From Candidatus Poribacteria bacterium (GTDB taxonomy: Bacteria > Poribacteria > WGA-4E > WGA-3G), in the NCBI GenBank assembly GCA_963663765.2, contig CAXXUA010000005.1:1664001-1728000 (forward strand): a DNA stretch of 64,000 bases. The letters run 5' to 3'. This document shows, piece by piece, positions 1,984-63,887 of this stretch; the stretch's first letter is position 1; each line of letters begins with the position of its first letter. The notes under the pieces were generated by a model. It worked only from the letters and a program-made list of their open reading frames with translations, had not been told where the DNA came from and did not search any database. Both the position numbers and the translations under genes were made by a program.

Positions 1984-2204
1984 AATATCCAAAAAAAAAC
2001 AGAATTTCTTACGCACACAAGTAAACAATCTAAAAAGTTCTTTTAGCATATAAAATGTTCGTCCAAACAAGGACTGTAAAGTTCTGTAACGTAACGATCG
2101 AAAATTTATAGAGTTCCCGTAGAAAAAGGTAATTCGTTAGAAAGAAACAACACCATCATGGTATAATGCTGATAACGAATCATGGAATAAAGCTCTAATT
2201 AGCG

Positions 2205-4021: not shown

Positions 4022-4043
4022 GGTATAATAAATCGGACATAAG

Positions 4044-4523
4044 ATGCGGATAGGAATCGGGTACGACGTTCATCAACTTGTTGAGAATAGGAAACTAATT
4101 TTGGGTGGCGTTGAAATCCCCTATCACTTGGGATTATTAGGACATTCAGATGCGGATGTGTTGACACACGCAATCTGTGACGCAATTTTAGGCGCAGCAG
4201 CTTTAGGAGACATCGGAACACATTTTCCAGATACGGACAAATGTTACGCTGGAATAGACAGTCAACTTATTCTTCGCACTATCACAGCGAAGATTAAAGA
4301 ACAAAATTACGTAATAGAAAATGTTGATAGCACAGTAATTGCACAAAAACCGAAATTAGCTCCATATATCTCCCAAATGCAACGTGTACTCGCAAAAACA
4401 TTAGATATAACAGAGACACAAGTAAGTGTGAAAGCGACTACCGCAGAAGCATTAGGAATTGTCGGTGAAGGAAAAGCAATCGTAGCACAAGCGGTTGTAT
4501 GTCTCTCTAAAGTTCAATCATAA
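4044..4523 (+). CDS. ispF: 2-C-methyl-D-erythritol 2,4-cyclodiphosphate synthase
   Basis: MRIGIGYDVH, GHSDADV, GDIG.HFPD, KATT motifs. Confidence 0.97.
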   Translation: MRIGIGYDVHQLVENRKLILGGVEIPYHLGLLGHSDADVLTHAICDAILGAAALGDIGTHFPDTDKCYAGIDSQLILRTITAKIKEQNYVIENVDSTVIAQKPKLAPYISQMQRVLAKTLDITETQVSVKATTAEALGIVGEGKAIVAQAVVCLSKVQS

Positions 4524-4582
4524 ATCTTGTGCTTTGTCGTAATGCAGTATATGTGCTTCATCAAAATATGAAGGGAAAGTGA

Positions 4583-6040: not shown

Positions 6041-6149
6041 CAACAAATATAGAACATCTAATGTTTAGTCCGTGTCTAAAAAAATAAGAACGCTCATAGT
6101 TTCTTAATATTTTGCACATAATAGTTACGTGCAATAAGGAGATAAAGTC

Positions 6150-6794
6150 ATGTATATTAAAAAGGTTTTTCATTTCTCACTCATCTGTTTTGCTGTTGTT
6201 CTTGTCGGTTGTAGTGCATTGCTATCCCAACAAGAATGGAGTGAAAACTACTCACTTCTTGAAGGAACCATTTCAACCAGTCCATCAATGATTGATGGAG
6301 ATATAAACACAATCGGTGAAACGACACTCCCCGCAACCGCAAGCTCCGCGTTGGGATCAAATCCTGCACCTGAAGTCATTATCACACTGCCAGAAGAAAA
6401 AGTTATACGTAGAATCGTTATCCATTCAGAAAATCTAAAGACATTTGATATCTTCGCTGACCAAGGCGGAATTGTTAAGGAAACTGACTGGAAATTAATC
6501 AAAGAGATAAAAACTGTCAAATCAAACCCAATTGAGATCCCTGTTTTAATCTCACACCCTACAAACCGCATTCGGCTTAGAGTATTATCTACGACAGACG
6601 ATGCAAATCTAAAACGTAGTCAACGCGCGCGCAGCGGCGGTGCTGGTAATAGAGCATTCGGTCAAAATCGTCGAGCACAAGGTAAAATCAAGGAAATTGA
6701 ACTTTACGGATATAAAACTGTTGAACAAACAAAGCAAAACACCGCAGCCGAAAACCGTGAGAAAGAACTTGATGATTTATTGAATACAGAATAA
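6150..6794 (+). CDS. Putative lipoprotein, discoidin/galactose-binding-like fold
   Basis: Signal peptide with lipobox LVGC; WSEN motif; ends in IKEIELYG as in F5/8-type domains; RBS aaggag. Confidence 0.6.
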   Translation: MYIKKVFHFSLICFAVVLVGCSALLSQQEWSENYSLLEGTISTSPSMIDGDINTIGETTLPATASSALGSNPAPEVIITLPEEKVIRRIVIHSENLKTFDIFADQGGIVKETDWKLIKEIKTVKSNPIEIPVLISHPTNRIRLRVLSTTDDANLKRSQRARSGGAGNRAFGQNRRAQGKIKEIELYGYKTVEQTKQNTAAENREKELDDLLNTE

Positions 6795-6889
6795 ATAATA
6801 AAATATCGGTACGACCGTTTTACCAACAAGACATTGGTAGAATTTAGCAGAATGTTGTACAAATATAAACACGAAATAAGGAGGAATAA

Positions 6890-7474
6890 ATGCGTTTCGG
6901 TATATTGATAATAATGTTCATCGGTATGCTTGTTGCGATATCTGGTTGTGTTCTCTCCTCAAATTCAACGCTTAACTGGAGCGAGAACATTGCAATAAGA
7001 GCCAACAGCAAAAATTCAAAATTTCATGATGACAACTTATATACGGAAGGAAGAACCTCAACCATAGTTGAAGAAAATCGAAGCCAAGCTGCACAAGAAG
7101 AATCTGATAAATACACAGAAGCTGTGTTAAGTTGGAACGTCCCTCAGGCGATCCAACAAATTGTCGTCAAAGCAAAAGAGGGACAACTGGAATTCTTTCA
7201 TATTCAATATATGGATGAAGAAGGAAAGTGGGTTACAATCAAAGATGTTCGCGAAAACATGCGTCCTGTCTATAAATACACACTTAGAGATCCTATTCTG
7301 ACAAAAAAGTTCCGACTCAAAGTTCCACGCAGATGGGAATCCCGACGAATCGGCGGACAGAGTAGGTCAAAACGCTCAGAAACTGGGGCACCATCTGCTG
7401 CTGAATACAAGAATATTCAGGAAATTGAACTCTATTACGCACTCCCAACACCCGAAACTACCTCAATGGAATAA
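6890..7474 (+). CDS. Putative lipoprotein, paralogue of 6150..6794
   Basis: Lipobox ISGC, WSEN motif, IQEIELYY; RBS aggagg. Confidence 0.6.
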   Translation: MRFGILIIMFIGMLVAISGCVLSSNSTLNWSENIAIRANSKNSKFHDDNLYTEGRTSTIVEENRSQAAQEESDKYTEAVLSWNVPQAIQQIVVKAKEGQLEFFHIQYMDEEGKWVTIKDVRENMRPVYKYTLRDPILTKKFRLKVPRRWESRRIGGQSRSKRSETGAPSAAEYKNIQEIELYYALPTPETTSME

Positions 7475-7529: not shown

Positions 7530-8747
7530 GTGATGCTATCTCAGGAAACAAAAAATCTTCTACATCTTAGTCTAATTCAAGGAGTTGGACCGAAAACCAT
7601 CTTATCCTTAGTCAATATATTGGGTAGTGCAGAAAAAGTTCTCAACGCTACGTCAGAGGAATTGGAAAAAATTGAAAAACTTTCTCCAAACGCACGAAAA
7701 CGTTTAACCCAAAGAAAACTCGGATGTCCATTAGAACGCGAGTTGGAACTGATACAGGAATATGGATGTCAAATAATAACATACTACGACACATCGTATC
7801 CACTCCTGTTGAAGGAAGTTGACCCACCACCTTTGTTACTTTACGTCAGAGGTGAAGTGAAACCGGAAGATTCACTTGGCTTCGCTATTGTCGGTTCCAG
7901 AGAAGCAAAAGATTATGGACGACGTGTCAGTTACCAATTAGCATACCAACTCGCGAACCGTGGTCTGACTGTCGTCAGTGGGTTCGCAAAGGGTATAGAC
8001 ACCTGTGCACACAGAGGCGCACTGGAAGCTGGCGGCAGAACAATTGCCGTAATGGGAAACGGACTGAGCCTCATCTATCCAGCAGGTAATCAAGAATTGG
8101 TGGAAAAAGTTGTTGAATCTGGCGCATTGATTTCTGAATTTCCGATGGGAATGAAACCAAGATCAGAGAATTTTCCCAGGCGCAATCGCATCATTAGCGG
8201 ATTAACACTTGGAACCGTTGTGGTTGAAGCTTCAAATAGAAGTGGCGCCCTTATAACAGCACGTCTCGCAAGTGAACAAGGTAGGGAGGTATTCGCTGTC
8301 CCAGGAGAAATCTTCTCTGAATTATCAACTGGCACACATAAACTAATTGATAACGGGGCGAAACTCATCAGCAAAGTAGACGATCTAATAGAAGCACTCC
8401 CACATCACGTCATAAATCAAATATCCGCCATCACACCAACATCAGAAACAGATAGAGGGAAGGAAACACCTTTCGTAAACAAGGGCAATCTTGAAGGTAC
8501 AAGCAGCACATTACCAAAATCAACCGATACTGATAAGAAAAAACCTTTACCCAAACCTCCACCACCAGATTTAACATCCGATGAAAAAACGGTGTTTGAT
8601 GCGATTGAAGTCCCTTCAACTCATATTGATACCATCGTCCGAACAACGCAGTTGCCGATTAACCAAATCTCAAGCGCACTGTTGATGTTAGAACTCAAAG
8701 GTGCTATTGAACAGTTACCCGGTAAACAGTTTGCCAAAACTATTTGA
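7530..8747 (+). CDS. dprA: DNA-processing protein DprA
   Basis: AIVGSR, VSGFAKGID, FPRRNRIISGL, SGALITA, VFAVPG motifs; C-terminal winged helix after a Pro-rich linker. Confidence 0.96.
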   Translation: MMLSQETKNLLHLSLIQGVGPKTILSLVNILGSAEKVLNATSEELEKIEKLSPNARKRLTQRKLGCPLERELELIQEYGCQIITYYDTSYPLLLKEVDPPPLLLYVRGEVKPEDSLGFAIVGSREAKDYGRRVSYQLAYQLANRGLTVVSGFAKGIDTCAHRGALEAGGRTIAVMGNGLSLIYPAGNQELVEKVVESGALISEFPMGMKPRSENFPRRNRIISGLTLGTVVVEASNRSGALITARLASEQGREVFAVPGEIFSELSTGTHKLIDNGAKLISKVDDLIEALPHHVINQISAITPTSETDRGKETPFVNKGNLEGTSSTLPKSTDTDKKKPLPKPPPPDLTSDEKTVFDAIEVPSTHIDTIVRTTQLPINQISSALLMLELKGAIEQLPGKQFAKTI

Positions 8748-8752
8748 GAGGT

Positions 8753-9730
8753 ATGCTTGTGAATTCATCTGAATTAGATTTTGAAAAACCACTAATAGAA
8801 TTAGAACGCCACCTAACACAACTGGACGCTTTCACAGAAGAACATCCAGAGTTAGACCTTTCAGAAGGTATTGCTGCATTGAAACAGAATGCAGACACAC
8901 TCACAAAACAGACTTTTCAAAAACTGAGTCGATGGGATAAAGTCCGTTTAGCACGGCACCCACAACGACCGCAATCTTCACTCTATATAGACGAACTTCT
9001 TGACGATCCTGTTGAACTCCGCAGCGATAAGTTATACGGCGATGACCGCGCTCTTATCGGTGGCTTAGCATGGTTTGATGAACACCCTATCGTCTACCTT
9101 GCACAACAAAAAGGAACGAACCTTGAAGAACGGCAGAAGATGAACTTCGGATATACACACCCAGAGGGGTACCGAAAAGCAAGACGTCTGATGCAGTTGG
9201 CGAACAAATACAACCGTCCCTTAATCTGTTTTGTTGATACGCCAGGTGCACACTTTGACCTCCGTTCCGAAGAATACGGACAAGCGGCAGCCATCGCTGA
9301 CAATCTCGCTGAAATGATACAGATGCATGTCCCAATTCTTGTCGTTATCATCGGTGAAGGCGGCAGCGGGGGCGCGTTAGCAATCGCTGTTGGTAATCGC
9401 GTGTTGATGATGGAATATGCAATCTACTGTGTCGCACCACCCGAGGCATGCAGTGGAATCGTATGGAAAGATAAAGGTGAACACGCACCTGAAGCCACCG
9501 AAGGCTATAAACCCACCGCACCTGACCTGCTAAAATTAGGTATCATTGACCAAATAATTCGCGAACCCCTCGGTGGTGCACACAGGGACCCAGAGGCAGC
9601 TGTCCGCAGCGTCAAACGTGCTATGCGAAAACATCTCAATGAATTGCTACAGATGACAGAAATACAACTTGTCCAACAACGTCATGAACGTTATAGAAAT
9701 CTCGGACTTTACGGAGAAGATGAAAATTAA
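8753..9730 (+). CDS. accA: Acetyl-CoA carboxylase carboxyltransferase alpha subunit
   Basis: LDFEKPL, ARHPQRP, PEGYRKA, DTPGA, GEGGSGGALA, EPLGGAHR motifs. ATG 8753 chosen after gagagg. Confidence 0.95.
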   Translation: MLVNSSELDFEKPLIELERHLTQLDAFTEEHPELDLSEGIAALKQNADTLTKQTFQKLSRWDKVRLARHPQRPQSSLYIDELLDDPVELRSDKLYGDDRALIGGLAWFDEHPIVYLAQQKGTNLEERQKMNFGYTHPEGYRKARRLMQLANKYNRPLICFVDTPGAHFDLRSEEYGQAAAIADNLAEMIQMHVPILVVIIGEGGSGGALAIAVGNRVLMMEYAIYCVAPPEACSGIVWKDKGEHAPEATEGYKPTAPDLLKLGIIDQIIREPLGGAHRDPEAAVRSVKRAMRKHLNELLQMTEIQLVQQRHERYRNLGLYGEDEN

Positions 9731-9740
9731 TACTACAATA

Positions 9741-9955
9741 ACGCAAGTTGCTACCTATAAGGTTTAGACGAATAAACACCGTTTTTTATAGAGTATAATA
9801 CACTTTTCGGTAGTATTTGTAGCACAAACTTTTAGTTTGTGCATCTTTATGACGCAAACTAAAAGTTTGCGCTACAAAATATAGGCTATTTATCAGCACT
9901 TTTTTGATAATAGATGGTTTTTCTAGGTCTAATTATTGTAGGTAGCAACATGGGT
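9741..9955. mobile_element. MITE with AC...GT termini carrying a REPIN
   Basis: Imperfect TIR acgcaagttgctacc / ggtagcaacatgggt; 7-bp direct repeat tacaata on both sides; internal inverted pair gtagcacaaacttttagtttgtgc ... gcaaactaaaagtttgcgctac (9819-9875). Confidence 0.75.
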
Positions 9956-10068
9956 TACAATATATAATTCTAAAGTAAAAAATCCTATTTTCAAATATTA
10001 CAAAATAAACAAATACCCTACAAAACTCATGAAAATCCCACTATCACATAAACATTCCATAAAAAAAT

Positions 10069-11199
10069 ATGAAAATACGTACAATTACTACAGGTATCCC
10101 ATTCCCATTTTCTTCTTACCAACTCCAACGTGCCGCAAAATTTAATACTGCCTGCAAAACGGCCATTGAAGCGAACGGTTACGAAGTCCAAACGACACGT
10201 GTTAGCTGCCAAATCTGGGATGAGCAAAGAGATATAGAGACCATCCTTGCATTAGAGAATGAAGCACAAGCATTAGGGATTGAGTTTCTGAGCTTAGGCA
10301 CAATTCCACCTGAAAAAAGATGCACAGCAACACACCTTGCACAGGTCGCAGATGTGATTGTAAAAAGCGAGATACTATTTGCAACCGTAACCCTAACGTC
10401 AGATACCGGACAAGTTGTACCAAACATTGCAGAAACCACTGCCGACATCATCCGGCAGATAGCACACCAAACCGAAGCAGGCTACGGTAACCTGCGCTTT
10501 GCTGCTTTGATGAACTGCCCCCCGAATACCCCCTTCTTCCCAGCTGCATACTGGCGCGACACCAGAACTAATTTCAGCATCGGATGGCAAGCGATTGACC
10601 TCGTCCAAGATGCCTTCACTGATGCACCGAATTTAGAAGCCGGGTTGCAAAATATGAAGACAGCAATGGAAGTGGAAGGAAAGAAAGTTGTCGCACTTGT
10701 GGAAACCATCGCAAAAGACTGTGGTATAAAGTTTATCGGTATTGACGTGTCGCTTGCACCGATGGGTAATGACAGCATCGCTTATGCAATGGAACAACTC
10801 CTCCCAGGATGCTTCGGTGATAGTGGCACCTTGACAGCCGCCGCAGGTATCACACGAACCCTTAAGTCCCTCTCCTTGCCGCTGTGTGGATATTCGGGAC
10901 TAATGCTCCCTGTGCTGGAAGACATCGGACTCGGCAAGCGGAGTGAAGAATGCTATTTCAATTTAGACAGCCTCCTCCTATATTCCTCTGTCTGTGGAAC
11001 GGGATTGGACACAATCCCTATTCCCGGGGATGCTTCCACTGAACAGATCGCCGCCATTTTGTCTGATGTCGCAACCCTCTCTATGCAGCTCAAAAAACCA
11101 CTATCTGTCCGTCTTTTCCCCGTTCCCGGTCGCAGGGCAGGTGACATAACGCAGTTTCAATCACCTTATCTCACAAACACTGCAGTGATGCAGATATAA
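10069..11199 (+). CDS. DUF711 family (PFL-like fold) protein
   Basis: MKIRTIT start, PFFPAAY, GIDVSLAP, GYSGLMLPVLED, SVCGTGLDTIPIPG motifs. Confidence 0.85.
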   Translation: MKIRTITTGIPFPFSSYQLQRAAKFNTACKTAIEANGYEVQTTRVSCQIWDEQRDIETILALENEAQALGIEFLSLGTIPPEKRCTATHLAQVADVIVKSEILFATVTLTSDTGQVVPNIAETTADIIRQIAHQTEAGYGNLRFAALMNCPPNTPFFPAAYWRDTRTNFSIGWQAIDLVQDAFTDAPNLEAGLQNMKTAMEVEGKKVVALVETIAKDCGIKFIGIDVSLAPMGNDSIAYAMEQLLPGCFGDSGTLTAAAGITRTLKSLSLPLCGYSGLMLPVLEDIGLGKRSEECYFNLDSLLLYSSVCGTGLDTIPIPGDASTEQIAAILSDVATLSMQLKKPLSVRLFPVPGRRAGDITQFQSPYLTNTAVMQI

Positions 11200-28473: not shown

Positions 28474-28907
28474 TACCATTTTCATGTGATAATGTCTCAT
28501 TAGCAGCGGAAATCTGGTAGGAGCGACCTCCCGGTCGCGACAGTGAGATCGCTCCTAAGCAGCGGAAATCTGGTAGGAGCGACCTCCCGGTCGCGACAGT
28601 GAGATCGCTCCTAAGCAGCGGAAATCTGGTAGGAGCGACCTCCCGGTCGCGACAGTGAGATCGCTCCTAAGCAGCGGAAATCTGGTAGGAGCGACCTCCC
28701 GGTCGCGACAGTGAGATCGCTCCTAAGCAGCGGAAATCTGGTAGGAGCGACCTCCCGGTCGCGACAGTGAGATCGCTCCTAAGCAGCGGAAATCTGGTAG
28801 GAGCGACCTCCCGGTCGCGACAGTGAGGGCGCTCCTACCGAAGAGAGTAACCCCATGCCAGTAAACAGTAGAATTCCTTAATGAGACAAGATTTATTTGA
28901 ATTGGTA
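28474..28907. mobile_element. TACCA-family MITE with an internal 56-bp tandem array
   Basis: Imperfect TIR taccattttca..tgtctcatta / taatgagaca..tgaattggta; TAA duplicated on both sides. Confidence 0.85.
28502..28837 (+). repeat. Six tandem 56-bp units, each containing a GTAG REP
   Basis: agcagcggaaatctggtaggagcgacctcccggtcgcgacagtgagatcgctccta repeated at 28502, 28558, 28614, 28670, 28726, 28782; the last unit varies slightly. Confidence 0.95.
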
Positions 28908-51958: not shown

Positions 51959-52560
51959 TGTGGGAGGGGTTTTCAACCCCGATTTCTTCGGTAGGAGCGA
52001 CCTCCTGGTCGCGACCGTTTTCAACCCCGATTTCTTCGGTAGGAGCGACCTCCTGGTCGCGACCGTCAAACCAAACCTACAACTATTGGTAGGAGCGACC
52101 TCCTGGTCGCGACCGTTTTCAACCCCGACCGTGTGTGAGGATTTGTCTGAACCAGGATTTTCAGGATTAGTAGATTTTCAGGATTTCACTCATTAGATGT
52201 TTTGATGCACATTGATGTTTTCTTTTGAATGGTGCCAAAATGCGACAGACTCACAATCCTGGAAATCTGTAAATCCTGTGAATCCTGGTTCAGACAGAAT
52301 CCGCGTAAACAGTCGGGGTTGAAAACCCCAATTTCTTCGGTAGGAGCGACCTCCTGGTCGCGACCGTTTTCAACTCCATCGCGACCATGCACCGCGCTGG
52401 TAGGAGCGACCTCCTGGTCGCGACCGTACACCGCGCTGGTAGGAGCGACCTCCTGGTCGCGACCGTTTTCAACCCCAATTTCTTCGGTAGGAGGGACGCT
52501 CTTGTGGGAGGGGTTTTCAACCCCGATTTCTTCGGTAGGAGCAACCTCCTGGTCGCGACC
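51959..52560. repeat. Mixed REP cluster (GTAG and GTGG hairpins) around an inverted-repeat pair
   Basis: gtaggagcgacctcctggtcgcgacc and gtgggaggggttttcaaccccga units; inverted pair tctgaaccaggattttcagga (52146) / tcctgtgaatcctggttcaga (~52274). Confidence 0.85.
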
Positions 52561-52635: not shown

Positions 52636-53451
52636 TCAAATCGTAACAACTTGCGGCTCCTGTTCTATATTCAAATTGTGTTCTGCAGCCCATGCTGCAA
52701 CCGCACCACCCCCACCACCGAGAAACTGCTTACCCATGTCATCAACATTTTTCAACACATCCGCATCCGGCTGCAGCTTGTCATTATAATACAACAGATA
52801 GCCTTCCGGTTTCAGCCAAGTATAGTGATAACCGTAAATGACAATCTTAGCCGTCTGATCCGTCCAGTTCGGTGCGGTGGTATGGTAGATACGGTTTTCA
52901 AAAAAATACGCATCACCAGCACGCAGGAGCGGTTCATCGTAAGACTCAATCGGATCAATCTTACCTTCAGGTATACCCAACGGTTCACCCGAAATATGGC
53001 TTTTTCGGACAAACAGAGTCGTCCCAGAATTCGGCACACTACAATCGGTTAGGCAATACGCTACCTTCAGTCCAACACACGGGCAATTCTTGTGACCAAG
53101 GTCCAAATGCAAACCAACATCCCGATGCCAGCCGCGATTCTCCGGCAGTTCAGACGGTTGCGGACGCTTATAAAGCAGTGCAGTATTAGTTATATGTAAA
53201 TTTGTACCAAGCAGTTGAATAACTAACGGTATCGCTTTCGTCTGTGAGGTCAATTCAGCAAACGCAGGTTCTTGCACCAACCCATCACGTTTGTGTACGT
53301 ACTGTGCATCTGTATCCATTAAGTCTACAATACGATCACCTGCTTCAGTCAAACGCGCGATCATCTCCTCATCAAGAACAGAACGCACAATGAAATATCC
53401 GTTTTCCTCAAATTCCTCACGTTGTGCATCTGTCAACTGGACAAATTCCAT
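52636..53451 (-). CDS. Phytanoyl-CoA dioxygenase (PhyH) family protein
   Basis: LT..Q...FEENGY, WHRD (HxD), AGDAYFF...YH.T.PN motifs. Confidence 0.88.
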   Translation of the reverse strand: MEFVQLTDAQREEFEENGYFIVRSVLDEEMIARLTEAGDRIVDLMDTDAQYVHKRDGLVQEPAFAELTSQTKAIPLVIQLLGTNLHITNTALLYKRPQPSELPENRGWHRDVGLHLDLGHKNCPCVGLKVAYCLTDCSVPNSGTTLFVRKSHISGEPLGIPEGKIDPIESYDEPLLRAGDAYFFENRIYHTTAPNWTDQTAKIVIYGYHYTWLKPEGYLLYYNDKLQPDADVLKNVDDMGKQFLGGGGGAVAAWAAEHNLNIEQEPQVVTI

Positions 53452-55587: not shown

Positions 55588-56505
55588 ATGCCAAAAACCT
55601 ATAAAACACTGACAGAATCAGATGTCCAACATTTCATAAAGAAGGGACACGTTGTCCTGAAAGACTGCTTTTCGCGCGAATTAGCAGCGGAATGGCGCGC
55701 ACTCGCTTTCAAACGACTCGGCTACGACCCCGACAACCCATCAACTTGGCAGGAACCCCGCATACACATGCCATCCATGAACCGTAAACCTATTCAAGAA
55801 ATTGCTCCGAGAGCCTGGGACGCCATCTGTGACCTACTCGGTGGTGATGATAGAATTGCTAACAGAGAACCGTCATGGAGTGATGGATTCATCATAAACT
55901 TTGCCTTAGGCGCCGATAAAAAATGGATACCGCCTGAAACACATCGATGGGGTTGGCATAAAGATGGAGATTTCTTCCGACACTTTTTGGACAGTCCCGA
56001 ACAAGGACTGCTCACTATCATTGTCTGGTCTGATATTCAACCAAAAAGCGGCGGCACTTTTGTGGCATGCGATTCAGTGCAGCATGTGGCACGGCATCTG
56101 TTTGAAAATCCACAAGGACTCCGACCCGGAGATGGTTTCGGTCAGTTGGTCGAGAAGTGCAAAGACTTTGTAGAAATCACAGGGAACGCAGGGGATGTTG
56201 TGCTTTTGCATCCATTTATCTTGCACTCTGCATCCAACAACCCATCCGGCCGCGCTCGTTTCATCACAAACCCACCAGTTGCACTCAAAGAACCGATGAA
56301 TTTCAACCGTCACAACCCAGACGATTTCTCCCCTGTGGAACTGGCAGTTTTGCGGGGATTAGGTAAAAGCCGCTTAGACTTCAAAACAGAAGCACCGCGC
56401 GAACGTTTAGTACCAGAACGTATCAAACGCCAAAAGAAAATGTTGGAAGAGCAGAAGAAACGGCTTGCAGTGGTAGGAGCGAACTCCCGGTCCCGACCGT
56501 TTTAG
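55588..56505 (+). CDS. Phytanoyl-CoA dioxygenase-like protein
   Basis: F.KKG.V, WHKDG (HxD), GGT, AGDVVLLHPFILHSAS.N motifs. Confidence 0.8.
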   Translation: MPKTYKTLTESDVQHFIKKGHVVLKDCFSRELAAEWRALAFKRLGYDPDNPSTWQEPRIHMPSMNRKPIQEIAPRAWDAICDLLGGDDRIANREPSWSDGFIINFALGADKKWIPPETHRWGWHKDGDFFRHFLDSPEQGLLTIIVWSDIQPKSGGTFVACDSVQHVARHLFENPQGLRPGDGFGQLVEKCKDFVEITGNAGDVVLLHPFILHSASNNPSGRARFITNPPVALKEPMNFNRHNPDDFSPVELAVLRGLGKSRLDFKTEAPRERLVPERIKRQKKMLEEQKKRLAVVGANSRSRPF

Positions 56506-56870
56506 AATCTTGTGGTAGGAGCGACCTCCCGGTCCCGACCGTTTTACAATCTTGTGGTAGGAGCGACCTCCCGGTCCCGACCGTTTTACAATCTTGTGGT
56601 AGGAGCGACCTCCCGGTCCCGACCGTTTTACAATCTTGTGGTAGGAGCGACCTCCCGGTCGCGACCGTATACCGCGCTGGTAGGAGCGACCTCCCGGTCG
56701 CGACCGTATACCGCGCTGGTAGGAGCGACCTCCCGGTCGCGACCGTTTTACAATCTTGTGGTAGGAGCGACCTCCCAGTCGCGACCGTATACCGCGCTGG
56801 TAGGAGCGACCTCCCGGTCGCGACTGTTGTCCTCCCCTTCAATGGTAGGAGCGACCTCCCGGTCGCGACC
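56473..56870 (+). repeat. Array of ten direct GTAG REPs with two recurring linkers
   Basis: REPs at 56473, 56515, 56557, 56599, 56641, 56680, 56719, 56761, 56800, 56845; linkers gttttacaatcttgtg or gtataccgcgctg. Confidence 0.95.
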
Positions 56871-56984: not shown

Positions 56985-57016
56985 TGTAACCTTTTCTTAT
57001 GTTTTGCATTCTTACA
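56985..57016 (+). promoter_or_regulatory. Putative ECF sigma promoter, copy 1
   Basis: tgtaac-N16-cattcttaca; same boxes and spacing at 59439. Confidence 0.65.
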
Positions 57017-57063
57017 TATAAATACACGCTCAAAATTGCAATCAGAAAAAAGGAGAAATAACC

Positions 57064-58377
57064 ATGAAAGAAAATAGTGTAGATGTTTGGAATGACTATC
57101 TGAATACACTTGAAAACCGTGGGCTTGCAACCGTTGATTGGGAAATTGCATCAGATGTTCAGGAAAAGTTAATAGACTTCTTCAAATCAAAAATTGATGA
57201 AGGTGTCTCTGATGGAAAAACGTCGCTTCCCCCCGATTTGACAGTGTACATCTATCGCTTCCCTAAAGAGATGCGGTGGATACTGCGAGTCTATGCTGAG
57301 GGGGCATTAGAAAGCCAGCCAGACAATGGCGCAGCAGCAAAATTCTTGGCGATAGAAACGTTGAACGTACTTAATGTAACAATTCCTTTCAATCAAAAAC
57401 GTCCACTTTTGGAAAAAGCGATGGAACAATTGGCAAAAGATATTGAAATCTGCTTCTTCGCCTTTTTGCAATATGGCTCCTACCATGAAGACGAAGATGC
57501 ACTCCAATCTTTGGAAAAAATGTTTGAGAGACTACAAGATGCTTCTCACGAGACACAAACTACGTGGGTATACCGAATATACGACTATAGTGAAGTCTGG
57601 CAAAATCCAATTGATATCCGTCAGGACCTTAATTCTGACGATCCATTCATTGAACGGTGGAATGTTATATTTAGCAAAATACAAACTATCTTGGAGAAAC
57701 AATTAGAGCAAAAACCCAAAGATTGGGATGCCTCACGGATGTTAGCTAAAATTCACGAAACATTAGGTGACCCTGAAGGGGTGAAAGCAGTTTATAAAGA
57801 AGCACAACCGGTTTTTGAGAAGGTATTGGAGAAAAAACCCAACGATTGGGATGCTCTAAACGCACTCACTAATATCCATGAGAAGTTAGGAAATACCGAA
57901 CTTTCACGCCAATATCAACTAAAGCAGGATCCGACATTAGCATGGGAAGGACAGAACTTGCCCGATTTCTCAGAAGGAACAGTTGACCTTGATGAAAATC
58001 CAATTTCACTTGCGGATTACAAAGGAAAAATCGTGTTACTCGATTTCTGGGCAGTGTGGTGCGGTCCCTGCCTCGGAGAAATACCGAATGTTAAAGAAGT
58101 CTACGAGAAATATCACCACAAAGGTTTTGATGTTATTGGTGTGAGTTTTGACAAAGACGAAGCAGTATTGCGTGAATTCATCAAGGAAAAAGAGATACCA
58201 TGGAAGCAAATTTTGGATAAAGATGGTTTTCGCGGCGTATTTGCAAAGCAGTACGGTGTGAGTGGTATTCCTGCACCATTTCTGATTGATCGTAATGGTA
58301 AGGTACTCTCAGTCAATGCAAGAAATAACCTACTTGGTGAACTCGTTAAAGCAGAGATTGAAGGTAAAAAAGGATAA
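57064..58377 (+). CDS. TPR-containing TlpA/ResA-like thiol-disulfide oxidoreductase
   Basis: Two TPR-like repeats (LE.KP.DWDA..L..IHE.LG); C-terminal KGKIVLLDFWAVWCGPC, YGVSGIP..FLID. Confidence 0.88.
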   Translation: MKENSVDVWNDYLNTLENRGLATVDWEIASDVQEKLIDFFKSKIDEGVSDGKTSLPPDLTVYIYRFPKEMRWILRVYAEGALESQPDNGAAAKFLAIETLNVLNVTIPFNQKRPLLEKAMEQLAKDIEICFFAFLQYGSYHEDEDALQSLEKMFERLQDASHETQTTWVYRIYDYSEVWQNPIDIRQDLNSDDPFIERWNVIFSKIQTILEKQLEQKPKDWDASRMLAKIHETLGDPEGVKAVYKEAQPVFEKVLEKKPNDWDALNALTNIHEKLGNTELSRQYQLKQDPTLAWEGQNLPDFSEGTVDLDENPISLADYKGKIVLLDFWAVWCGPCLGEIPNVKEVYEKYHHKGFDVIGVSFDKDEAVLREFIKEKEIPWKQILDKDGFRGVFAKQYGVSGIPAPFLIDRNGKVLSVNARNNLLGELVKAEIEGKKG

Positions 58378-58464
58378 GTAAAGGTTTTTCTGTAGGTGTG
58401 CCTTGCAAGCGCGCCTACTGCGGATGTTAAATAAATTATGAGTTTTGCAATGTCAGAGAATTAA

Positions 58465-58768
58465 TACCATTTCAAATAAATCTTGTCTCATTAAGGAAGT
58501 CTAATGTTTACTGCCAGGGGGGTACTCGCTTCGGTAGGAGCGACCTCCCGGTCGCGACCGTAAGATCACTGCTGAGATCTCTGGTAGGAGCGACCTCCCG
58601 GTCGCGACCGTCAAACCAAACCTACAACTATCGGTAGGAGCGACCTCCCGGTCGCGACCGTAAGATCACTGCTGAGATCTCTGGTAGGAGCGACCTCCCG
58701 GTCGCGACCGTGTTGTCCCACCTACCAGATTTACGCTGATAATGAGACATTATCACATGAAAATGGTA
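58465..58768. mobile_element. TACCA-family MITE (reverse orientation) with four REPs
   Basis: taccatttcaaataaatcttgtctcatta ... taatgagacattatcacatgaaaatggta; TAA duplicated on both sides. Confidence 0.85.
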
Positions 58769-58804
58769 TAATAAAACAGCGATGGACACAGAGGATAAAT
58801 ACCA

Positions 58805-59419
58805 ATGGATGAACTTCACGACGAAGAATTAATACATCAAAATATAGACGTTGATGATGACGGTGCATTTGAAATCCTTTACCACCGTTATGAAGGTCCA
58901 TTGCTCAGCTTTTTCTACAGACGCGTCGGCAACTGGGAAACCGCACAAGACCTTGTGCAGGAGACGTTCATCAAGGTGCATCAAAATCTACGGAAACTTC
59001 GGAATCCAAAAAGCTTTTCCAGTTGGTTGTATAGTATCGCGCATCAACTCATTGCAGCACATTTCCGTAAAGAGCAGAGAAAACTTGAAATCGGTTCAAT
59101 TGAAGGAAATCCAGAGGCATATTTGGTAGACCTTGAGCATCGTTCACCTATCTATCGCATCATTGCCAAAGAACAAATGGAAATTGTATATGCGCTTGCA
59201 CAACGATTGCCTATTTCCGAACAAGAAGTATTTGAACTGAAACTCGCAAATCCCAAAATGCTGTTGGATGAAATCGCTAAAAAATTGAATATCAACCTAT
59301 CGGCAACTAAAGTTCGATTTTATCGCGCTAAGAAAAGAATTCGTTCCTGGATGAAAACTGAATATCCCGGTGAATTTGATAACATCTTTGGAAAAGAAAA
59401 TGATACAAAAACAGAATGA
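58805..59419 (+). CDS. ECF-family RNA polymerase sigma factor
   Basis: DEELI..AFEILYHRY, AQDLVQETFIKV, FSSWLYSIA, EIAKKLNINLSATKVRFYRAKK. Confidence 0.92.
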   Translation: MDELHDEELIHQNIDVDDDGAFEILYHRYEGPLLSFFYRRVGNWETAQDLVQETFIKVHQNLRKLRNPKSFSSWLYSIAHQLIAAHFRKEQRKLEIGSIEGNPEAYLVDLEHRSPIYRIIAKEQMEIVYALAQRLPISEQEVFELKLANPKMLLDEIAKKLNINLSATKVRFYRAKKRIRSWMKTEYPGEFDNIFGKENDTKTE

Positions 59420-59438
59420 TATAGCAAAATGGATTTTA

Positions 59439-59470
59439 TGTAACCTTTTTAGTCTATATACATTCTTACA
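59439..59470 (+). promoter_or_regulatory. Putative ECF sigma promoter, copy 2
   Basis: tgtaac-N16-cattcttaca just upstream of RBS aaggag. Confidence 0.65.
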
Positions 59471-59487
59471 CTAAAAGGAGAATACAC

Positions 59488-60198
59488 ATGACACCGACTG
59501 ATGTCAAGGAATTGCTAATAACTCTAATCGCAGCACAGGAACTGCAAATCAATGTAGTTGATACAGTACTTGAACGATATCGTGGTGGTTCAGACTACAC
59601 CACCGAAGAACGTATAAAGGATGTTATCCACCAATGGAACAAAGATGGTAAAATCTACACGCGGCATCCCGGGAGAGCAGATATTATGGAGTTTTATACA
59701 AAAACTGACGCTACTTCCCCAACAAAAGAATTGTTGGATTCTTTAGAAGTTGAAGTACTTCTTGAAACCATTATCAAAGAACAAGATCTATCTCTCTCTT
59801 TCACAGACCACGGCTTCAGATTGGTCACTATGGCTGAAAATGATACGTCGCGTTACCCTGTCAAAATACTGCACGGTGGATTTCAGTTAGAGAAACAAAC
59901 AGAGGCTAAGGCTTTAATCCCACAACTAAAGGGTGTCGCGAAGAAATTTGAAATAGTACTAAAGGAGAAGTTCATCAAAGCAAAACTGTTCCACAGAGGT
60001 TTTAGATTAGAGAAAACTTCTGAATCCAACATTCCTCTCACACAGATTAGTGAGATTGCAAAACAGATAGATGATACGCTCGGTATTAACTATAGACTAA
60101 ATTCATATAGGACACCCCCATCCGAAGATGACTTCAAGTCTACCAACTGTATAAGTGCTAATATACGTCCGTCTCTTTGGCGGTTTCCACGACGTTGA
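59488..60198 (+). CDS. Hypothetical protein, internal-repeat family paralogue 1
   Basis: MTPTDVKELL start; repeated DHGFRL / HGGFQL / HRGFRL; GINY; strong RBS. Confidence 0.8.
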   Translation: MTPTDVKELLITLIAAQELQINVVDTVLERYRGGSDYTTEERIKDVIHQWNKDGKIYTRHPGRADIMEFYTKTDATSPTKELLDSLEVEVLLETIIKEQDLSLSFTDHGFRLVTMAENDTSRYPVKILHGGFQLEKQTEAKALIPQLKGVAKKFEIVLKEKFIKAKLFHRGFRLEKTSESNIPLTQISEIAKQIDDTLGINYRLNSYRTPPSEDDFKSTNCISANIRPSLWRFPRR

Positions 60199-60256
60199 AG
60201 GATTCTGTAGAACCAAACTTGACAACATTTCTATTTCAATGAAAGGAGACTGAACT

Positions 60257-60991
60257 ATGAACCCAAGCAAAGTTGAAGAAATACTAAACAGTTTAATCGA
60301 CGAACTCAATCTTCCTATCAATATCTCAGAAAGTGGACCAAAAGTGATTATTAATAGTGATAGTGCAACACGAGAACGAGCAGAAGAGATAGTAAAAGAG
60401 TGGATGGATGGAGAGCATCTGAGTCATGGAATTTCTGTCGGACGCACCGTCGCAGAAATTGATAAACTAACAACACGTCTCGCTTTAGACACGCACCGTT
60501 CATCGGAAGTAAAGACAATCCTCAAATCACTCATTACAGAGCAGGCACTGCCTTTGAAAGTGACTGATTGCGGTTTTCAATTGGAAATCCTAATAGATGA
60601 AAACGTTGACTATCGGAGTGAAGAGATGATAACGCTGGAATCAATGTATGAAAAAGAAGGTATAGACATTCCAGTACGCCATAACGGTTTCATACTACGG
60701 CATAAGGAAGACGACACCGAAGTTCAGTTTTCTGATGCCGAAACATTGGCAAAACATCTCGCGTCTTTGTTGATAGAATACGGACTACACGTAAAATTGC
60801 TCCATATAGGTTTTCAAGTGCATAAAAAGCAAGAAAACGAAATTGATATCGCAGAGGTGGAAGAGTTGACAAATCGGTTAGAAAACATGGTAGGCATCCG
60901 CTATGTCCAAGGCGGTTACGGATACATTGTGCCCGGTTTAGATACAGAAATCCACTGGACACAAGCAGATATAACTACTGCTTTGCCATAG
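60257..60991 (+). CDS. Hypothetical protein, internal-repeat family paralogue 2
   Basis: MNPSKVEEIL start; DCGFQL / HNGFIL / HIGFQV; GIRY; RBS aaggag. Confidence 0.8.
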   Translation: MNPSKVEEILNSLIDELNLPINISESGPKVIINSDSATRERAEEIVKEWMDGEHLSHGISVGRTVAEIDKLTTRLALDTHRSSEVKTILKSLITEQALPLKVTDCGFQLEILIDENVDYRSEEMITLESMYEKEGIDIPVRHNGFILRHKEDDTEVQFSDAETLAKHLASLLIEYGLHVKLLHIGFQVHKKQENEIDIAEVEELTNRLENMVGIRYVQGGYGYIVPGLDTEIHWTQADITTALP

Positions 60992-61078
60992 TTGTCAACA
61001 CATAGACACAAAATTCACATACATATTAATCTGAACGAGTCAAAACCCAAAATAACAAAATTTCTTTGGAGGTAAAAT

Positions 61079-61906
61079 ATGTACCCAAACGATGTGAAAG
61101 ATCTATTGCGATCTTCAGTTACAGAGTTATCGTTGCCAGTTGCGGTTTCGGATTGCGGTCCCCTCTTAATTAGCGATGACGATTCCAATGCAACAAGAGA
61201 CCGTCTCAAAAATATCGCACAACAGTGGATGGACCTTGAAAGAGATGAATGCGACGAAATTCCTAAAATGGTACAAGAAGCAAGGGAAGCTATCGGGTTT
61301 TATGGAAAACATAGAAGCTATAGGACATCTGTAGGAATAACTGAATCTGAGATGTGCGACGAAATAGAACATCTTGCATTAGGCACGAAACGGCTTTCTG
61401 AAGTAAGAGAAATTTTGGAAACCTTGATGGCAGAAAGAAAGCTGCAATGTGATATAAACTACAGCGGCTTTGTTGTCAAAGTCCTTTCAGAAGACCCAAC
61501 AAGGTATCGCGACGCAGAAATGGTAAGACTTGAAACCTTGATAAAAGAACAGAACTTAAAAGTCCAGGTACGCCATAGCGGTTTTAGTTTACCCCGAGCA
61601 AACAAATCCACAGATATACAATTATCAGGAATGCAAGAATTAGCAAACCGCGTGCAGAATACATTAGAAAAACACGGATTGAAAGCATACTTACTCCACG
61701 ACGGTTTTGAACTAATAAAAGACCAAGAATACGAGATAGATCTCGCAGAGATCGAAGAAATAGTACTTCGCTTAAAACTTATGTCTGGAATTAATTATAG
61801 GGTAAGTCAAAACAGTATGGGAGACAATAAAAAAGTAAAACCAGAGTGGAATTTTGATATTAATTGGAACTATGTGAAGCTGTTAACAAGCAGTCCGTAT
61901 TATTAA
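61079..61906 (+). CDS. Hypothetical protein, internal-repeat family paralogue 3
   Basis: MYPNDVKDLL start; YSGFVV / HSGFSL / HDGFEL; GINY; RBS ggaggt. Confidence 0.8.
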   Translation: MYPNDVKDLLRSSVTELSLPVAVSDCGPLLISDDDSNATRDRLKNIAQQWMDLERDECDEIPKMVQEAREAIGFYGKHRSYRTSVGITESEMCDEIEHLALGTKRLSEVREILETLMAERKLQCDINYSGFVVKVLSEDPTRYRDAEMVRLETLIKEQNLKVQVRHSGFSLPRANKSTDIQLSGMQELANRVQNTLEKHGLKAYLLHDGFELIKDQEYEIDLAEIEEIVLRLKLMSGINYRVSQNSMGDNKKVKPEWNFDINWNYVKLLTSSPYY

Positions 61907-61941
61907 TTCAGTTTAGCAACACCCCTACCAACGGAGAATGA

Positions 61942-62688
61942 ATGATGAATCCGAATAAAGTAAAAGAATTACTCAACGCTTTGATTGACGAACTCAAATT
62001 ACCTATCCGTGTTACTGTTACTCATAGTGGACCTATTCTGGTTTTCGGTCCAGGAAGCACTGCTACACGATCACGAGCGAGAGATGTATTAACACAATGG
62101 TCAATTGAAAATAATCGTAGTTGGAACATATCTGTAGGACTACCTATAAACGAGAGGGAAAAGGCTACAACCTGTCTTGCTGTGGACACACATCGCACGA
62201 CAGAAATAAGAAATATACTGGAATCCTTAATCACTGAACAAGCTTTCCCATTGACTGTTGTTGATAGTGGTTTTCAATTGGAAATTCTAACTGATGAAGG
62301 GGTAGACTATCGTAATGAAGATATGATAAATCTGGAAGCACTGTTAGAAAAAGAGAACATAAATGTTCCAGTACGTCATAGCGGTTATAGTCTACACCAC
62401 AAGGAAAATGATGAAGAACTTCTTTTTAGCGAAGCCAATACATTGGCAAATCATCTCTCCTCTTTACTGGTAAGACACGGGTTACATGTACGACTGCTCC
62501 ATAACGGTTTTAGAATACTTAAAAACCAAGAAGACGCAATACATATTGCAGAAGTGAAGGAACTCACCAACAGATTGAAGCTTATGGTTGGTATCCGCTA
62601 TATCCAAGGTGAATATAGATATTCAAATGACGTACAAAATCCTGAAATACATTGGGAATCTGCTGATGTCAATACCGCCTTGCCATAG
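61942..62688 (+). CDS. Hypothetical protein, internal-repeat family paralogue 4
   Basis: Colinear with paralogue 2 (EQA.PL.V.D.GFQLEIL, PVRH.G, GIRY.QG, EIHW..AD..TALP). Confidence 0.8.
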   Translation: MMNPNKVKELLNALIDELKLPIRVTVTHSGPILVFGPGSTATRSRARDVLTQWSIENNRSWNISVGLPINEREKATTCLAVDTHRTTEIRNILESLITEQAFPLTVVDSGFQLEILTDEGVDYRNEDMINLEALLEKENINVPVRHSGYSLHHKENDEELLFSEANTLANHLSSLLVRHGLHVRLLHNGFRILKNQEDAIHIAEVKELTNRLKLMVGIRYIQGEYRYSNDVQNPEIHWESADVNTALP

Positions 62689-62790
62689 TTTCAAAAAATG
62701 CACTGTATTGCGATGTGGGTTGATCCAAACAGATCAATCTCATAATAACAATACATTTAATGAATAACATACAAGATGGAGGATACTCCA

Positions 62791-63054
62791 ATGACCTACG
62801 TAATTTGCGAACCATGCATTGATGTAAAAGATCACGTTTGTGCCGATATATGTCCTGTGGATTGTATCCACCCAATGCAAAACATTGACCCAGATGGATT
62901 TGAGGAAGTAAATCAACTATACATTGACCCTGAAGAATGCATCGATTGCGGAATTTGTGAATCTGAATGTCCCGTTGAGGCGATCTTCGTTGAGGAAGAA
63001 GTACCAGAAGAATGGGAACATTTCATACAAATTAACGCAGATTATTTCAAATAA
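62791..63054 (+). CDS. Dicluster ferredoxin (7Fe FdxA-like)
   Basis: MTYVICEPC..KD..C...CPVDCI and CIDCGICESECP. ATG 62791 follows ggagg. Confidence 0.92.
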   Translation: MTYVICEPCIDVKDHVCADICPVDCIHPMQNIDPDGFEEVNQLYIDPEECIDCGICESECPVEAIFVEEEVPEEWEHFIQINADYFK

Positions 63055-63065
63055 CAAAACAATTC

Positions 63066-63093
63066 TTGACAAATTCATATAATAGGATATAAT
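63066..63093 (+). promoter_or_regulatory. Putative sigma70 promoter of the second ferredoxin
   Basis: ttgaca-N16-tataat. Confidence 0.6.
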
Positions 63094-63111
63094 ATTAAAA
63101 GGAATAAACAG

Positions 63112-63378
63112 ATGACTTACGTAATATGTGAACCCTGCATAGACGAAAAAGACAGTTCATGTGTTGATATTTGTCCTTGCGATTCTATCCGACCGAATCC
63201 TGGATGGGAAGCCAAAGAATATGAGGCAGTAGACCAGCTTTTTATTGACCCAGTAACATGTATTGAATGTGGTGTTTGTGAACCAGAATGTCCTGTTGAA
63301 GCTATATATTTTGAGGAAGATGTACCTGAAGAATGGGAGCATTATATAGAAAAAAACGCTGATTTTTATAAAAAATAA
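63112..63378 (+). CDS. Dicluster ferredoxin (variant CPCDSI)
   Basis: CEPC..C...CPCD and CIECGVCEPECP. Confidence 0.92.
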   Translation: MTYVICEPCIDEKDSSCVDICPCDSIRPNPGWEAKEYEAVDQLFIDPVTCIECGVCEPECPVEAIYFEEDVPEEWEHYIEKNADFYKK

Positions 63379-63438
63379 AAAAACAGTGTTTAAGTAGATA
63401 ATGAGTACGTTATAATATAACAGAAAGGAGATTTTATA

Positions 63439-63702
63439 ATGACCTATGTAATTTGTGAACCTTGCATTGACGAAAAAGATAGTTCATGTGTTGATGTCTG
63501 TCCAGTTGATTGCATTCACCCACATCCAACTGATGCACCAGATGACTTTGAAGAAGTCGAAATGCTATATATAGACCCAGAAGAGTGCATCGATTGTGGT
63601 GTATGTGAACCGGAATGTCCCGTAGAGGCTATCTTTATGGAAGAAGATGTACCTGAAGAATGGGAACATTTCATTGAAATCAACGCCGCATATTTTGAAT
63701 AA
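63439..63702 (+). CDS. Dicluster ferredoxin
   Basis: CEPC..C...CPVDC and CIDCGVCEPECP. Confidence 0.92.
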   Translation: MTYVICEPCIDEKDSSCVDVCPVDCIHPHPTDAPDDFEEVEMLYIDPEECIDCGVCEPECPVEAIFMEEDVPEEWEHFIEINAAYFE

Positions 63703-63887
63703 TAACCCCCTATTGACTACAAAACACTAAAAACTAAGGGTGTTGTCTAAATATTGATTGATATTGATGCAAGTTCTAACAAGAAGAACTATGATCTATC
63801 ATTCGTTAGACAATACCCTTGCTTTTTGTCAAAAGATATAAATCTTCACTGGAAAAGAATATTCCCGCAGACTAAACTATAACTGTC

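Follow-up and report, generated by a model that had tools for sequence, protein, structure and literature searches.

A conserved ECF sigma factor module of Poribacteria carrying a novel family of cytoplasmic repeat proteins, with ferredoxins and a thioredoxin-fold protein

The stretch of 64,000 nucleotides (nt) analysed here, hereafter the window, belongs to a Candidatus Poribacteria genome (assembly GCA_963663765.2, contig CAXXUA010000005.1, positions 1,664,001 to 1,728,000). It carries near its 3' end a cluster of nine genes that encode a protein combining tetratricopeptide repeats (TPR) with a thioredoxin fold (the TPR-redoxin), an extracytoplasmic function (ECF) sigma factor, four paralogous proteins (P1 to P4) and three ferredoxins (Table 1). 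The four paralogues belong to two subfamilies described below, A-type (P1) and B-type (P2 to P4). An initial reading of the sequence (the original prediction) had proposed a dedicated ECF module with a common promoter, in which the sigma gene is followed by four paralogous open reading frames (ORFs) of 236-275 amino acids (aa) and three ferredoxin genes, and all nine ORFs were recovered on the forward strand where it had placed them. The comparisons with related genomes indicate that the ECF module is real and conserved and that it carries a novel protein family. It appears to be self-contained, wholly cytoplasmic and restricted to one family of Poribacteria. For every window protein of the unit, the highest Kyte-Doolittle mean over 19 residues is under 1.4, so that no transmembrane protein was detected in it by this measure, as had been claimed for the four paralogues together with a lack of signal peptide. 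Literature searches on Poribacteria sigma factors yielded no description of the module; a passage of PMC6081418 deals with an acidobacterial-like sigma antagonist and is irrelevant to the module.

Table 1. Genes and signals of the ECF module, in window positions
Feature	Positions	Strand	Basis or remark
ECF-type promoter motif 1, TGTAACC-N15-CATTCT	56985..57012	+	Exact match; 52 nt 5' of the TPR-redoxin ATG
TPR + thioredoxin-fold protein, TlpA/ResA-like, WCGPC, cytoplasmic, 437 aa	57064..58377	+	Pfam
Four copies of a 27-bp REP-like (repetitive extragenic palindromic) repeat, between redoxin and ECF genes	58533..58709	+	
Sigma-70-like promoter candidate GAGACA-17-TATAAT with TG, just 5' of the ECF gene	58744..58772	+	Weak
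ECF (group 4) sigma factor, 204 aa	58805..59419	+	Pfam, NCBIfam
ECF-type promoter motif 2	59439..59466	+	22 nt 5' of the A-type ATG; followed by AAAGGAG ribosome-binding site
P1, A-type member, 236 aa, first gene after the sigma gene	59488..60198	+	Alignment, tree
P2, B-type member, 244 aa	60257..60991	+	Alignment, tree, AlphaFold2 model
P3, B-type member, long subclade, 275 aa	61079..61906	+	Alignment, tree
P4, B-type member, 248 aa	61942..62688	+	Alignment, tree
7Fe-type ferredoxin 1	62776..63054	+	Fer4 37.9 bits
Sigma-70 consensus promoter TTGACA-N16-TATAAT, 5' of ferredoxin 2	63066..63093	+	12/12 positions
7Fe-type ferredoxin 2; variant CPCDSI replacing CPVDCI	63112..63378	+	Pfam, NCBIfam, orthologue alignment
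7Fe-type ferredoxin 3	63439..63702	+	Pfam, NCBIfam, orthologue alignment

The linkage was followed in 25 loci, i.e., the window, 20 loci from other genomes and four further loci whose only family member is of the A-type (A-only loci). The ECF gene and the family array adjoin in all 25, and the association expected by the original prediction is thus borne out. The order ECF, A-type, further members, ferredoxin(s), on one strand, is found in 20/20 of the related loci, which hold one to eight further family members and one to three ferredoxins each; in the same way, ECF, A and ferredoxin(s) follow each other on one strand in the four A-only loci. Throughout the loci compared, the sigma gene, the A-type gene and the ferredoxin genes are always kept together, while the TPR-redoxin gene lies directly 5' of the ECF gene in 13 loci, the window included. 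Two relatives carry transposase-like ORFs, seen by eye: in L058 (positions 2481-3421, genome G073), an IS200-like/REP-associated tyrosine-transposase-like ORF with flanking short palindromes is located between the ECF and A genes, and in L060 (positions 3104-4210, genome G079), the start of a similar ORF follows the A-type gene.

The distribution of the family is narrow. A word-indexed search with P2 returned 90 relatives of about 245 aa, and all those named by NCBI are hypothetical proteins of Candidatus Poribacteria. Searching 1.84 billion cluster representatives with a profile of the four paralogues (HMMER) gave only 14 proteins at E<=1e-3. One of them, P0098, an 802-aa repeat protein (E 8.8e-11), was rejected as spurious (hhalign probability of 0.04% against a profile of 41 family sequences). 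No fused form of the family was found in this search, which was not restricted by length, and tblastn gave no match of P2 to plasmids or of P1 to phages. Of 176 Poribacteria genomes, 71 carry the family, and these belong to a single taxonomic family: 37/39 in genus g1 (the genome of the window, G000, not counted), 1/1 in genus g5, 32/65 in genus g6 and none in the other 28 genera. An ECF orthologue profile (E<=1e-40) likewise matches 71 of the 176 genomes, adjoining the array, and the two phyletic patterns are the same (both in 71, neither in 105, one alone in 0). The genome of the window holds no copies of the family other than the four described here.

The proposed promoter motif was found upstream of both the TPR-redoxin gene and the first paralogue, as two exact matches to TGTAACC-N15-CATTCT in the window versus 0 expected from 100 shuffles. 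Of the two forms in which it had been given, TGTAAC-N16-CATTCT is correct, while the inner spacer, from ...CCTTTT to CATTCT, measures 11 nt and not 12. A scan of the whole genome (6.35 Mb) returns these two sites and no third. Furthermore, a position weight matrix (PWM) derived from the 20 other genomes (41 sites), the window sites being left out, exceeds 14 bits in this genome only at motif 2 (46.0 bits) and motif 1 (44.0 bits), whereas the reversed matrix used as control reaches at most 10.5 bits. A looser pattern, TGTAAC-N16-18-CATTCT, has six matches in the genome; the four extra ones have other spacers, none of them exceeds 14 bits by PWM and they were discarded as regulon members.

In the 20 relatives and the window (21 loci), 43 sites were collected, with the consensus tttttATGTAACCTTTT-N7-TtTgCATTCTTA and an identical spacer of 15 bases in 43/43. 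Every locus has two sites except the one in which the array is duplicated, with two A-type genes, where there are three. Site 1 is located 5' of the TPR-redoxin gene or, where this is absent, of the ECF gene, and the motif before the sigma unit is kept in 25/25 loci. Site 2, in the intergenic region between ECF and A, lies 22-25 nt 5' of the A-type ATG and is followed by AAAGGAG; it is found in 20/20 relatives and in 3/4 A-only loci, the fourth having a CGTAACC variant. The motif, which reads as non-palindromic, is made of an ECF-style -35 box with AAC, then a T-tract. Its position, its architecture and its exclusive co-occurrence with the sigma gene lead us to infer that the sigma factor reads both sites. 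It would therefore activate its own gene (with that of the TPR-thioredoxin protein where present) and the operon A, B (zero to eight copies), ferredoxin 1, and these two promoters only would make up its predicted regulon.

Motif 1 is presumed to drive the TPR-redoxin gene and, by read-through, the ECF gene, hence autoregulation. The gap between these two genes is short in the relatives; in the window, they are held apart by four copies of a 27-bp repeat, and this insertion makes read-through less certain here than in the relatives. The sigma-70-like candidate that lies downstream of the repeats could be a basal promoter of the ECF gene: it matches 10/12 consensus positions, with an extended -10. 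It is a weak call since such sites are no more numerous in the region (19) than in shuffles (19.5).

The four proteins align over their full length with 27-58% identity, in agreement with their description as paralogues. P1 shares 27-29% identity with P2 to P4, P2 and P4 share 58%, and P3 shares 38-39% with P2 and P4. The four ORFs do begin with M-x-P-x-x-V-x-(E/D)-(L/I)-L and have GI(N/R)Y late in the sequence, and the peptides given as examples were found as well. The greatest divergence had been placed near residues 30-80 and at the C-terminus, and the lowest pairwise identity does lie at residues 21-60 and 221-240 of P2. A maximum-likelihood tree of 59 family members separates an A clade (22 rows, stem length 1.19, support 100/100) from a B clade (37 rows), which is itself made of a long P3-like subclade (16) and a P2/P4-like subclade (21). 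There is one A-type gene per array (two in locus L052), always the first after the sigma gene, and it occurs in 25/25 loci versus 21/25 for B-type genes. In the A-only loci, the A gene is followed by the ferredoxin genes and tblastn detects no B remnant. The gap after A holds, in one of them, the apparent 3' end of a ferredoxin gene (seen by eye), so at least that A-only state seems to result from a secondary deletion. Two family matches are found in 30/32 positive genomes of genus g6 and one to nine per genome in genus g1, these counts not being strict copy numbers. The family thus appears to split into an invariant A-type, whose gene always leads the array, and B-types that can be expanded (zero to eight copies). 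The A-type has a conserved C-terminus, SLWRFPRR. Neither a Cys pair nor a zinc motif is conserved in it, and only one Cys occurs in P1. This A/B split, the predicted two-promoter regulon and the conserved consensus sigma-70 promoter belonging to ferredoxins 2 and 3 (see below) are the new findings of this analysis.

As the original prediction had it, the four proteins belong to no recognised family: no match was found in Pfam, NCBIfam, PADLOC or the PDB. They had been described as built of about four to five repeat units. Profile-profile comparison of units cut from the 41-sequence alignment gives four clear units and a degenerate last one, with probabilities of 97.8% (units 1 and 3), 93.8% (units 3 and 4), 96.3% (units 4 and 5) and 79% (units 1 and 4). 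Unit 2 has no similarity to the others and unit 6 only a weak one. An invariant H-x-G-F occurs family-wide in two units, along with conserved Glu, Lys, Tyr and Trp, and no Cys pair is conserved in the family. The AlphaFold2 model of P2, made with the same alignment, is of high confidence (predicted local distance difference test, pLDDT, 94.0; predicted template modelling score, pTM, 0.88) and displays six helix + hairpin elements, the second one consisting of a single strand plus an extra helix. The model of P1 is less confident (pLDDT 75.6, with low values in residues 29-72 and 125-129), and the unit 4 helix is missing from it. The low-confidence stretch 29-72 of the A-type would be compatible with folding on a partner.

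No characterised relative emerged from the fold searches. Foldseek against the PDB and BFVD gave nothing at E<=1e-3 (template modelling scores of about 0.1-0.25), and the check suggested along with the original prediction therefore returned no confident match to a characterised family. The best Z of an exhaustive VIA-align search is 7.2 for P2 and 7.0 for P1, i.e., background level (typical best Z 7-8). The matches cover about 75-80 residues in the C-terminal two thirds, the part of the protein on which this result mainly bears. The top rows, common to P1 and P2, are generic two-layer helix-strand-strand sandwiches: HAD C2B caps, GspL, GspM and PilO. Among the named matches are GspL/XcpY (Z 6.8 and 6.6), EpsM (6.8), EpsL (5.9) and PilO (5.9), and superpositions of the GspL/GspM/PilO type, with Z 5.9-6.8 over 73-121 residues, remain within the background range. 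The family resembles the GspL/GspM/PilN/PilO domains and the HAD C2B caps as a two-layer sandwich of tandem helix-hairpin units, at the fold level only. The comparison with GspL/PilO and HAD C2B gives Z 6.6-7.2 and a root-mean-square deviation of 2.5-3.0 over 73-81 residues for both models, but the scores are at background level, about one third of the protein is covered and identity is 6-16%; homology is unsupported. Homology to TraI_middle (PF22863) was also rejected: 10/41 members match below threshold, the best at 24.4 versus 27.6 bits, over 34 residues only. A sequence-profile search of the PDB gave eIF3c at best (E 0.091, 38 residues), and the ESM Atlas gave no usable match for P2 or P1.

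The sigma factor matches Sigma70_r2 (67.7 bits) and Sigma70_r4_2 (24.6 bits) in Pfam and TIGR02937 in NCBIfam (78.2 bits, cut-off 42.9), where no equivalog is reached. Having regions 2 and 4 only in 204 aa, it corresponds to ECF group 4 (about 200 aa), and no C-terminal extension was found in the Pfam scan. Its orthologues share 57-100% identity within Poribacteria while the next relatives (Ignavibacteria and others) share at most 34%, which suggests a sharply bounded clade. No gene of the unit matches an anti-sigma domain of Pfam or NCBIfam. P1 to P4, without any match in these two databases and with a single Cys in P1, do not qualify as zinc-containing anti-sigma (ZAS) factors or class I anti-sigma factors such as RsrA, RshA and ChrR; the models, too, are predicted as helix-hairpin repeats and not as a helical bundle. 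The HATPase_c and STAS domains of partner-switching systems (SpoIIAB/RsbW) are absent from the nine proteins and from 41 family members scanned singly.

How the sigma factor is controlled can thus only be proposed tentatively. According to the reading put forward here, to which we give a probability of roughly 0.4, the A-type protein would be its cognate cytoplasmic partner, a non-canonical anti-sigma factor or sensor. This is suggested because A is the only obligatory partner of the sigma factor and is encoded in the position where anti-sigma genes sit, and because the sigma factor is predicted to be autoregulated, has no extension and leaves no other candidate regulator. That A forms a clade of its own with full support, is always encoded first and stands alone in 4/25 loci argues for it as the core partner. 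There would be a precedent in RsbN of Streptomyces, reportedly an anti-sigma factor that resembles no other and that belongs to the targets of its own sigma factor. In the full form of the mechanism, A would keep the sigma factor bound for as long as no redox or Fe-S stress is signalled; the thioredoxin-fold protein and the ferredoxin, once induced, would then restore the state that lets A re-bind the sigma factor, closing a homeostatic loop similar to SigR-RsrA-thioredoxin. The B-types would be duplicated derivatives of A that modulate it or provide extra outputs. This whole picture, in which A is the first member of a structurally new class of cytoplasmic anti-sigma factors or sensors, made of tandem helix-hairpin units, the B-types are lineage-expanded homologous sensor or decoy subunits and the ferredoxin and thioredoxin-fold protein complete a redox-resetting switch, is rather doubtful as a whole; the redox role rests on gene context only.

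Several observations weigh against A as an anti-sigma factor. Anti-sigma genes are normally co-transcribed with their sigma genes and often translationally coupled, and a gene separated from an adjacent sigma gene by a sigma-dependent promoter is in most cases a target, as the COE gene is of ECF41. The size (236 aa) and the alpha/beta repeat architecture of A set it apart from the small anti-sigma domains, which are helical, and A does not conserve a Cys pair or a zinc motif by which redox could be sensed. The ferredoxins of the A-only genomes seem to have their own sigma-70-like promoters (read by eye in three cases). This would leave A as the one product specific to the sigma factor and argues for a useful activity of A itself. 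Alternatively, as in the original prediction, A and B would be effectors of the regulon and the sigma factor would be controlled by something that is not encoded here, an explanation as probable as the preceding one, its chances also being somewhat under one in two. The soluble helix-hairpin proteins would then work with the ferredoxin and the thioredoxin-fold protein, possibly with A and B as a hetero-oligomer. They might be a ferredoxin-dependent enzyme or scaffold using the two invariant His, or might give protection in the manner of holdases during oxidative or Fe-S stress. A has its own sigma-type promoter in 24/25 loci and a variant in the 25th, as is typical of target genes, and the predicted regulon holds nothing else, so that its useful output has to be found among the redoxin, A, B and the ferredoxin. 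Modules with A only are kept intact in four genomes. The residues of the H-x-G-F units and the conserved Glu, Lys, Tyr and Trp suggest a functional site, and the large alpha/beta repeat structure of A also fits an effector. The A/B split is ancient, with one of each kept by most arrays, and the B copy number varies from zero to eight within one genus, as is usual for effector families. However, with effectors alone, an otherwise self-contained module would have no negative regulator for its presumably autoregulated sigma factor. In addition, A and B show neither a recognised catalytic or cofactor motif nor Cys ligands, and no structural relative points to an activity, the best Z values being those of the background.

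Two other explanations appear less probable. If A is the anti-sigma factor, the B-types could be homologous decoys or sensors that pair with A via the common helix-hairpin core and thereby set the sigma factor free, the variable regions (residues 21-60 and the C-terminus) reading different signals, as RsbR paralogues diversify the input of the stressosome. Such a partner-switching array is an unlikely special case of A as an anti-sigma factor, and its small probability is contained in that of the latter, not additional to it. A and B do have a common core and differ most in two regions, one A is accompanied by one to eight B per array, with B expansions that are lineage-specific, and the best fold matches, although at background level, are the helix-strand-strand domains of GspL/XcpY, EpsM, EpsL and PilO. 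Domains of this type form homo- and heterodimers between paralogues. However, B is missing from 4/25 loci and hence is unneeded for the persistence of the module, and the predicted sigma-dependence of the B genes would lead to runaway positive feedback. In the last explanation, which would also undermine A as a sigma partner, the motif would serve as the operator of a different transcription factor and the cluster would be merely syntenic. CATTCT does differ from the CGT-type -10 of many ECF promoters. This is nevertheless quite improbable given that the motif is non-palindromic and found only beside this sigma gene, that its TGTAAC-N16-CATTCT spacing is fixed in all 43 sites, that its -35 box, with AAC, does not differ from the ECF16 one and that the 22-25 nt to the ATG leave room for only a short leader with the ribosome-binding site.

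The module shares some features with several known ECF systems. SigR-RsrA of Streptomyces and SigH-RshA of mycobacteria are thiol-stress ECF systems. They are cytoplasmic and positively autoregulated, their small regulon includes thioredoxin-fold proteins and their sigma gene is followed at once by the gene of a soluble regulator, an organisation also proposed for the present module. By contrast, the present module has no ZAS anti-sigma factor (no zf-HC2 match, no HxxxCxxC, one Cys in P1), the gene next to its sigma gene has a predicted promoter of its own and encodes an alpha/beta repeat protein of 236 aa, and its conserved output consists of ferredoxins instead of trxBA. ECF41 and ECF42 systems have a single target, a COE or DGPF protein whose gene is kept beside that of the sigma factor, and the sigma factor is controlled by a fused C-terminal extension and is not autoregulated. 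A neighbour gene with a sigma-dependent promoter directly upstream and a very small regulon are common to these systems and, by prediction, to the module, but here the sigma factor has 204 aa without extension and its own unit carries the motif. The third comparison is with ECF16 sigma factors, whose promoter is tGTAACc-N16-CGAA and which are described as inducible by reactive oxygen species or HOCl and as autoregulated (PMC3420878, PMC8315932). Caulobacter SigF-NrsF, Bradyrhizobium EcfF-OsrA and Brucella BcrS-AbcS have a -35 TGTAAC(C) and a spacer of about 16, as in the module, autoregulation and small regulons, as predicted for it, but a CGAA element where CATTCT is found here in 43/43 sites, so that the motif is not an ECF16 promoter. 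The nearest non-poribacterial relatives of the sigma factor, in Ignavibacteria, share at most 34% identity, and the likeness to ECF16 noted here is drawn from the promoters. Furthermore, the window proteins of the unit have no hydrophobic segment and no Pfam match to a multi-pass membrane anti-sigma factor such as the one adjacent to ECF16 sigma factors (NrsF/OsrA type, DUF1109).

Among the major modes of signal transduction in bacteria, ECF sigma factors rank third, and newly described ways of controlling them have each been informative as to mechanism. The sole obligatory partner of the present one belongs to a family without sequence relative outside one family of Poribacteria and without clear structural relative, and an A-anchored redox-resetting switch, if true, would have no counterpart among the described ECF groups. 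The organisms are uncultured sponge symbionts, but the system (sigma factor, A and one promoter) is small enough for reconstruction in E. coli, which makes the choice between a new anti-sigma class and a new effector family directly testable. The link with ferredoxins and a cytoplasmic thioredoxin-fold protein bears on how symbionts handle the redox stress of their host. The narrow taxonomic range and the many ECF groups already lacking a known regulator limit this interest.

The TPR-redoxin matches Redoxin (88.2 bits, cut-off 26.6), AhpC-TSA (84.2 bits) and TPR_19 (37.3 bits) in Pfam; its score for the ResA subfamily (94.9 bits) is under the cut-off of 170. Its Redoxin domain and WCGPC make it TlpA/ResA/DsbE-like, although, unlike the periplasmic members of this group, it has no export signal or transmembrane segment. 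Ferredoxin 1 scores 89.8 bits with FdxA_Actino and the three ferredoxins 84-94 bits, all under the cut-off of 125, hence a family-level and not an equivalog assignment. The true start of ferredoxin 1 is probably the methionine of MTYVICEPC, at 62791. With Fer4 scores above cut-off and the invariant C6, C9, C17, C21-P22, C50, C53, C56 and C60-P61 in 18 sequences, these proteins display the 7Fe pattern, CxxC...C-x3-CP ... CxxCxxC-x3-CP, which presumably binds a [3Fe-4S] and a [4Fe-4S] cluster. One module ferredoxin (L043:5433-5696, minus strand, genome G155, genus g6) has an in-frame TGA at the second Cys of CxxCxxC, and some ECF and ferredoxin orthologues of other genomes have one TGA each; these could be selenocysteine codons or signs of pseudogenes. 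The ferredoxin family occurs in 166/176 genomes of the phylum, the genome of the window having only the three module copies at E<=1e-20.

The inclusion of the three ferredoxins in the ECF module holds in part: their genes always travel with it, but they are not uniformly ECF-driven, ferredoxin 2 having its own TTGACA-N16-TATAAT. This signal is kept 5' of the gene of the same type in 9/20 related loci and in L057. Due to it, ferredoxins 2 and 3 are probably also expressed on their own, and its unusually perfect sequence suggests strong constitutive expression. Ferredoxin 1 follows the array without such a signal. Contigs of one sponge metatranscriptome run (0.05 of sampled words), which inform on neither starts, ends, strand nor level, cover the 3' end of P2 (60847-60998, 0 differences) and ferredoxin 3 (63382-63750, 2 differences). 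Such libraries can hold DNA and the parts without contigs say nothing, so this is a weak hint of expression of the unit.

The 27-bp repeat found upstream of the ECF gene, GGTAGGAGCGACCTCCCGGTCGCGACC, occurs 45 times in the window with up to three mismatches, 42 of them on the forward strand (e.g., 28516-28822, 51990-52560, 56472-56870 and 58533-58709). It forms intergenic clusters with periods of 39-56 bp and creates long spurious ORFs on both strands. Its contig depth is very high in DNA runs and its RNA folds with z = -5.1. It looks like an element of the REP or bacterial interspersed mosaic element (BIME) type, the spacing being too close for a CRISPR (clustered regularly interspaced short palindromic repeats) array.

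Among the ORFs flanking the module, L056:10947-11804 (minus strand) matches Pfam PhyH (phytanoyl-CoA dioxygenase family), and two ORFs of the window, 52636-53451 (minus strand) and 55588-56505 (forward strand), look similar to it by eye only. L056 (contig C5 of G000, 1727001-1746000) extends beyond the 3' end of the window. Downstream of ferredoxin 3, it encodes an ECF sigma factor fused to WD40 repeats (1222-4962, 1246 aa), two proteins of about 800 aa with TPR and a double Redoxin/AhpC-TSA (5032-7398 and 7848-10301) and a 152-aa 2x[4Fe-4S] ferredoxin (10331-10789). Large redoxin proteins like these flank the module in several relatives, and the module neighbourhood appears to be a larger redox island.

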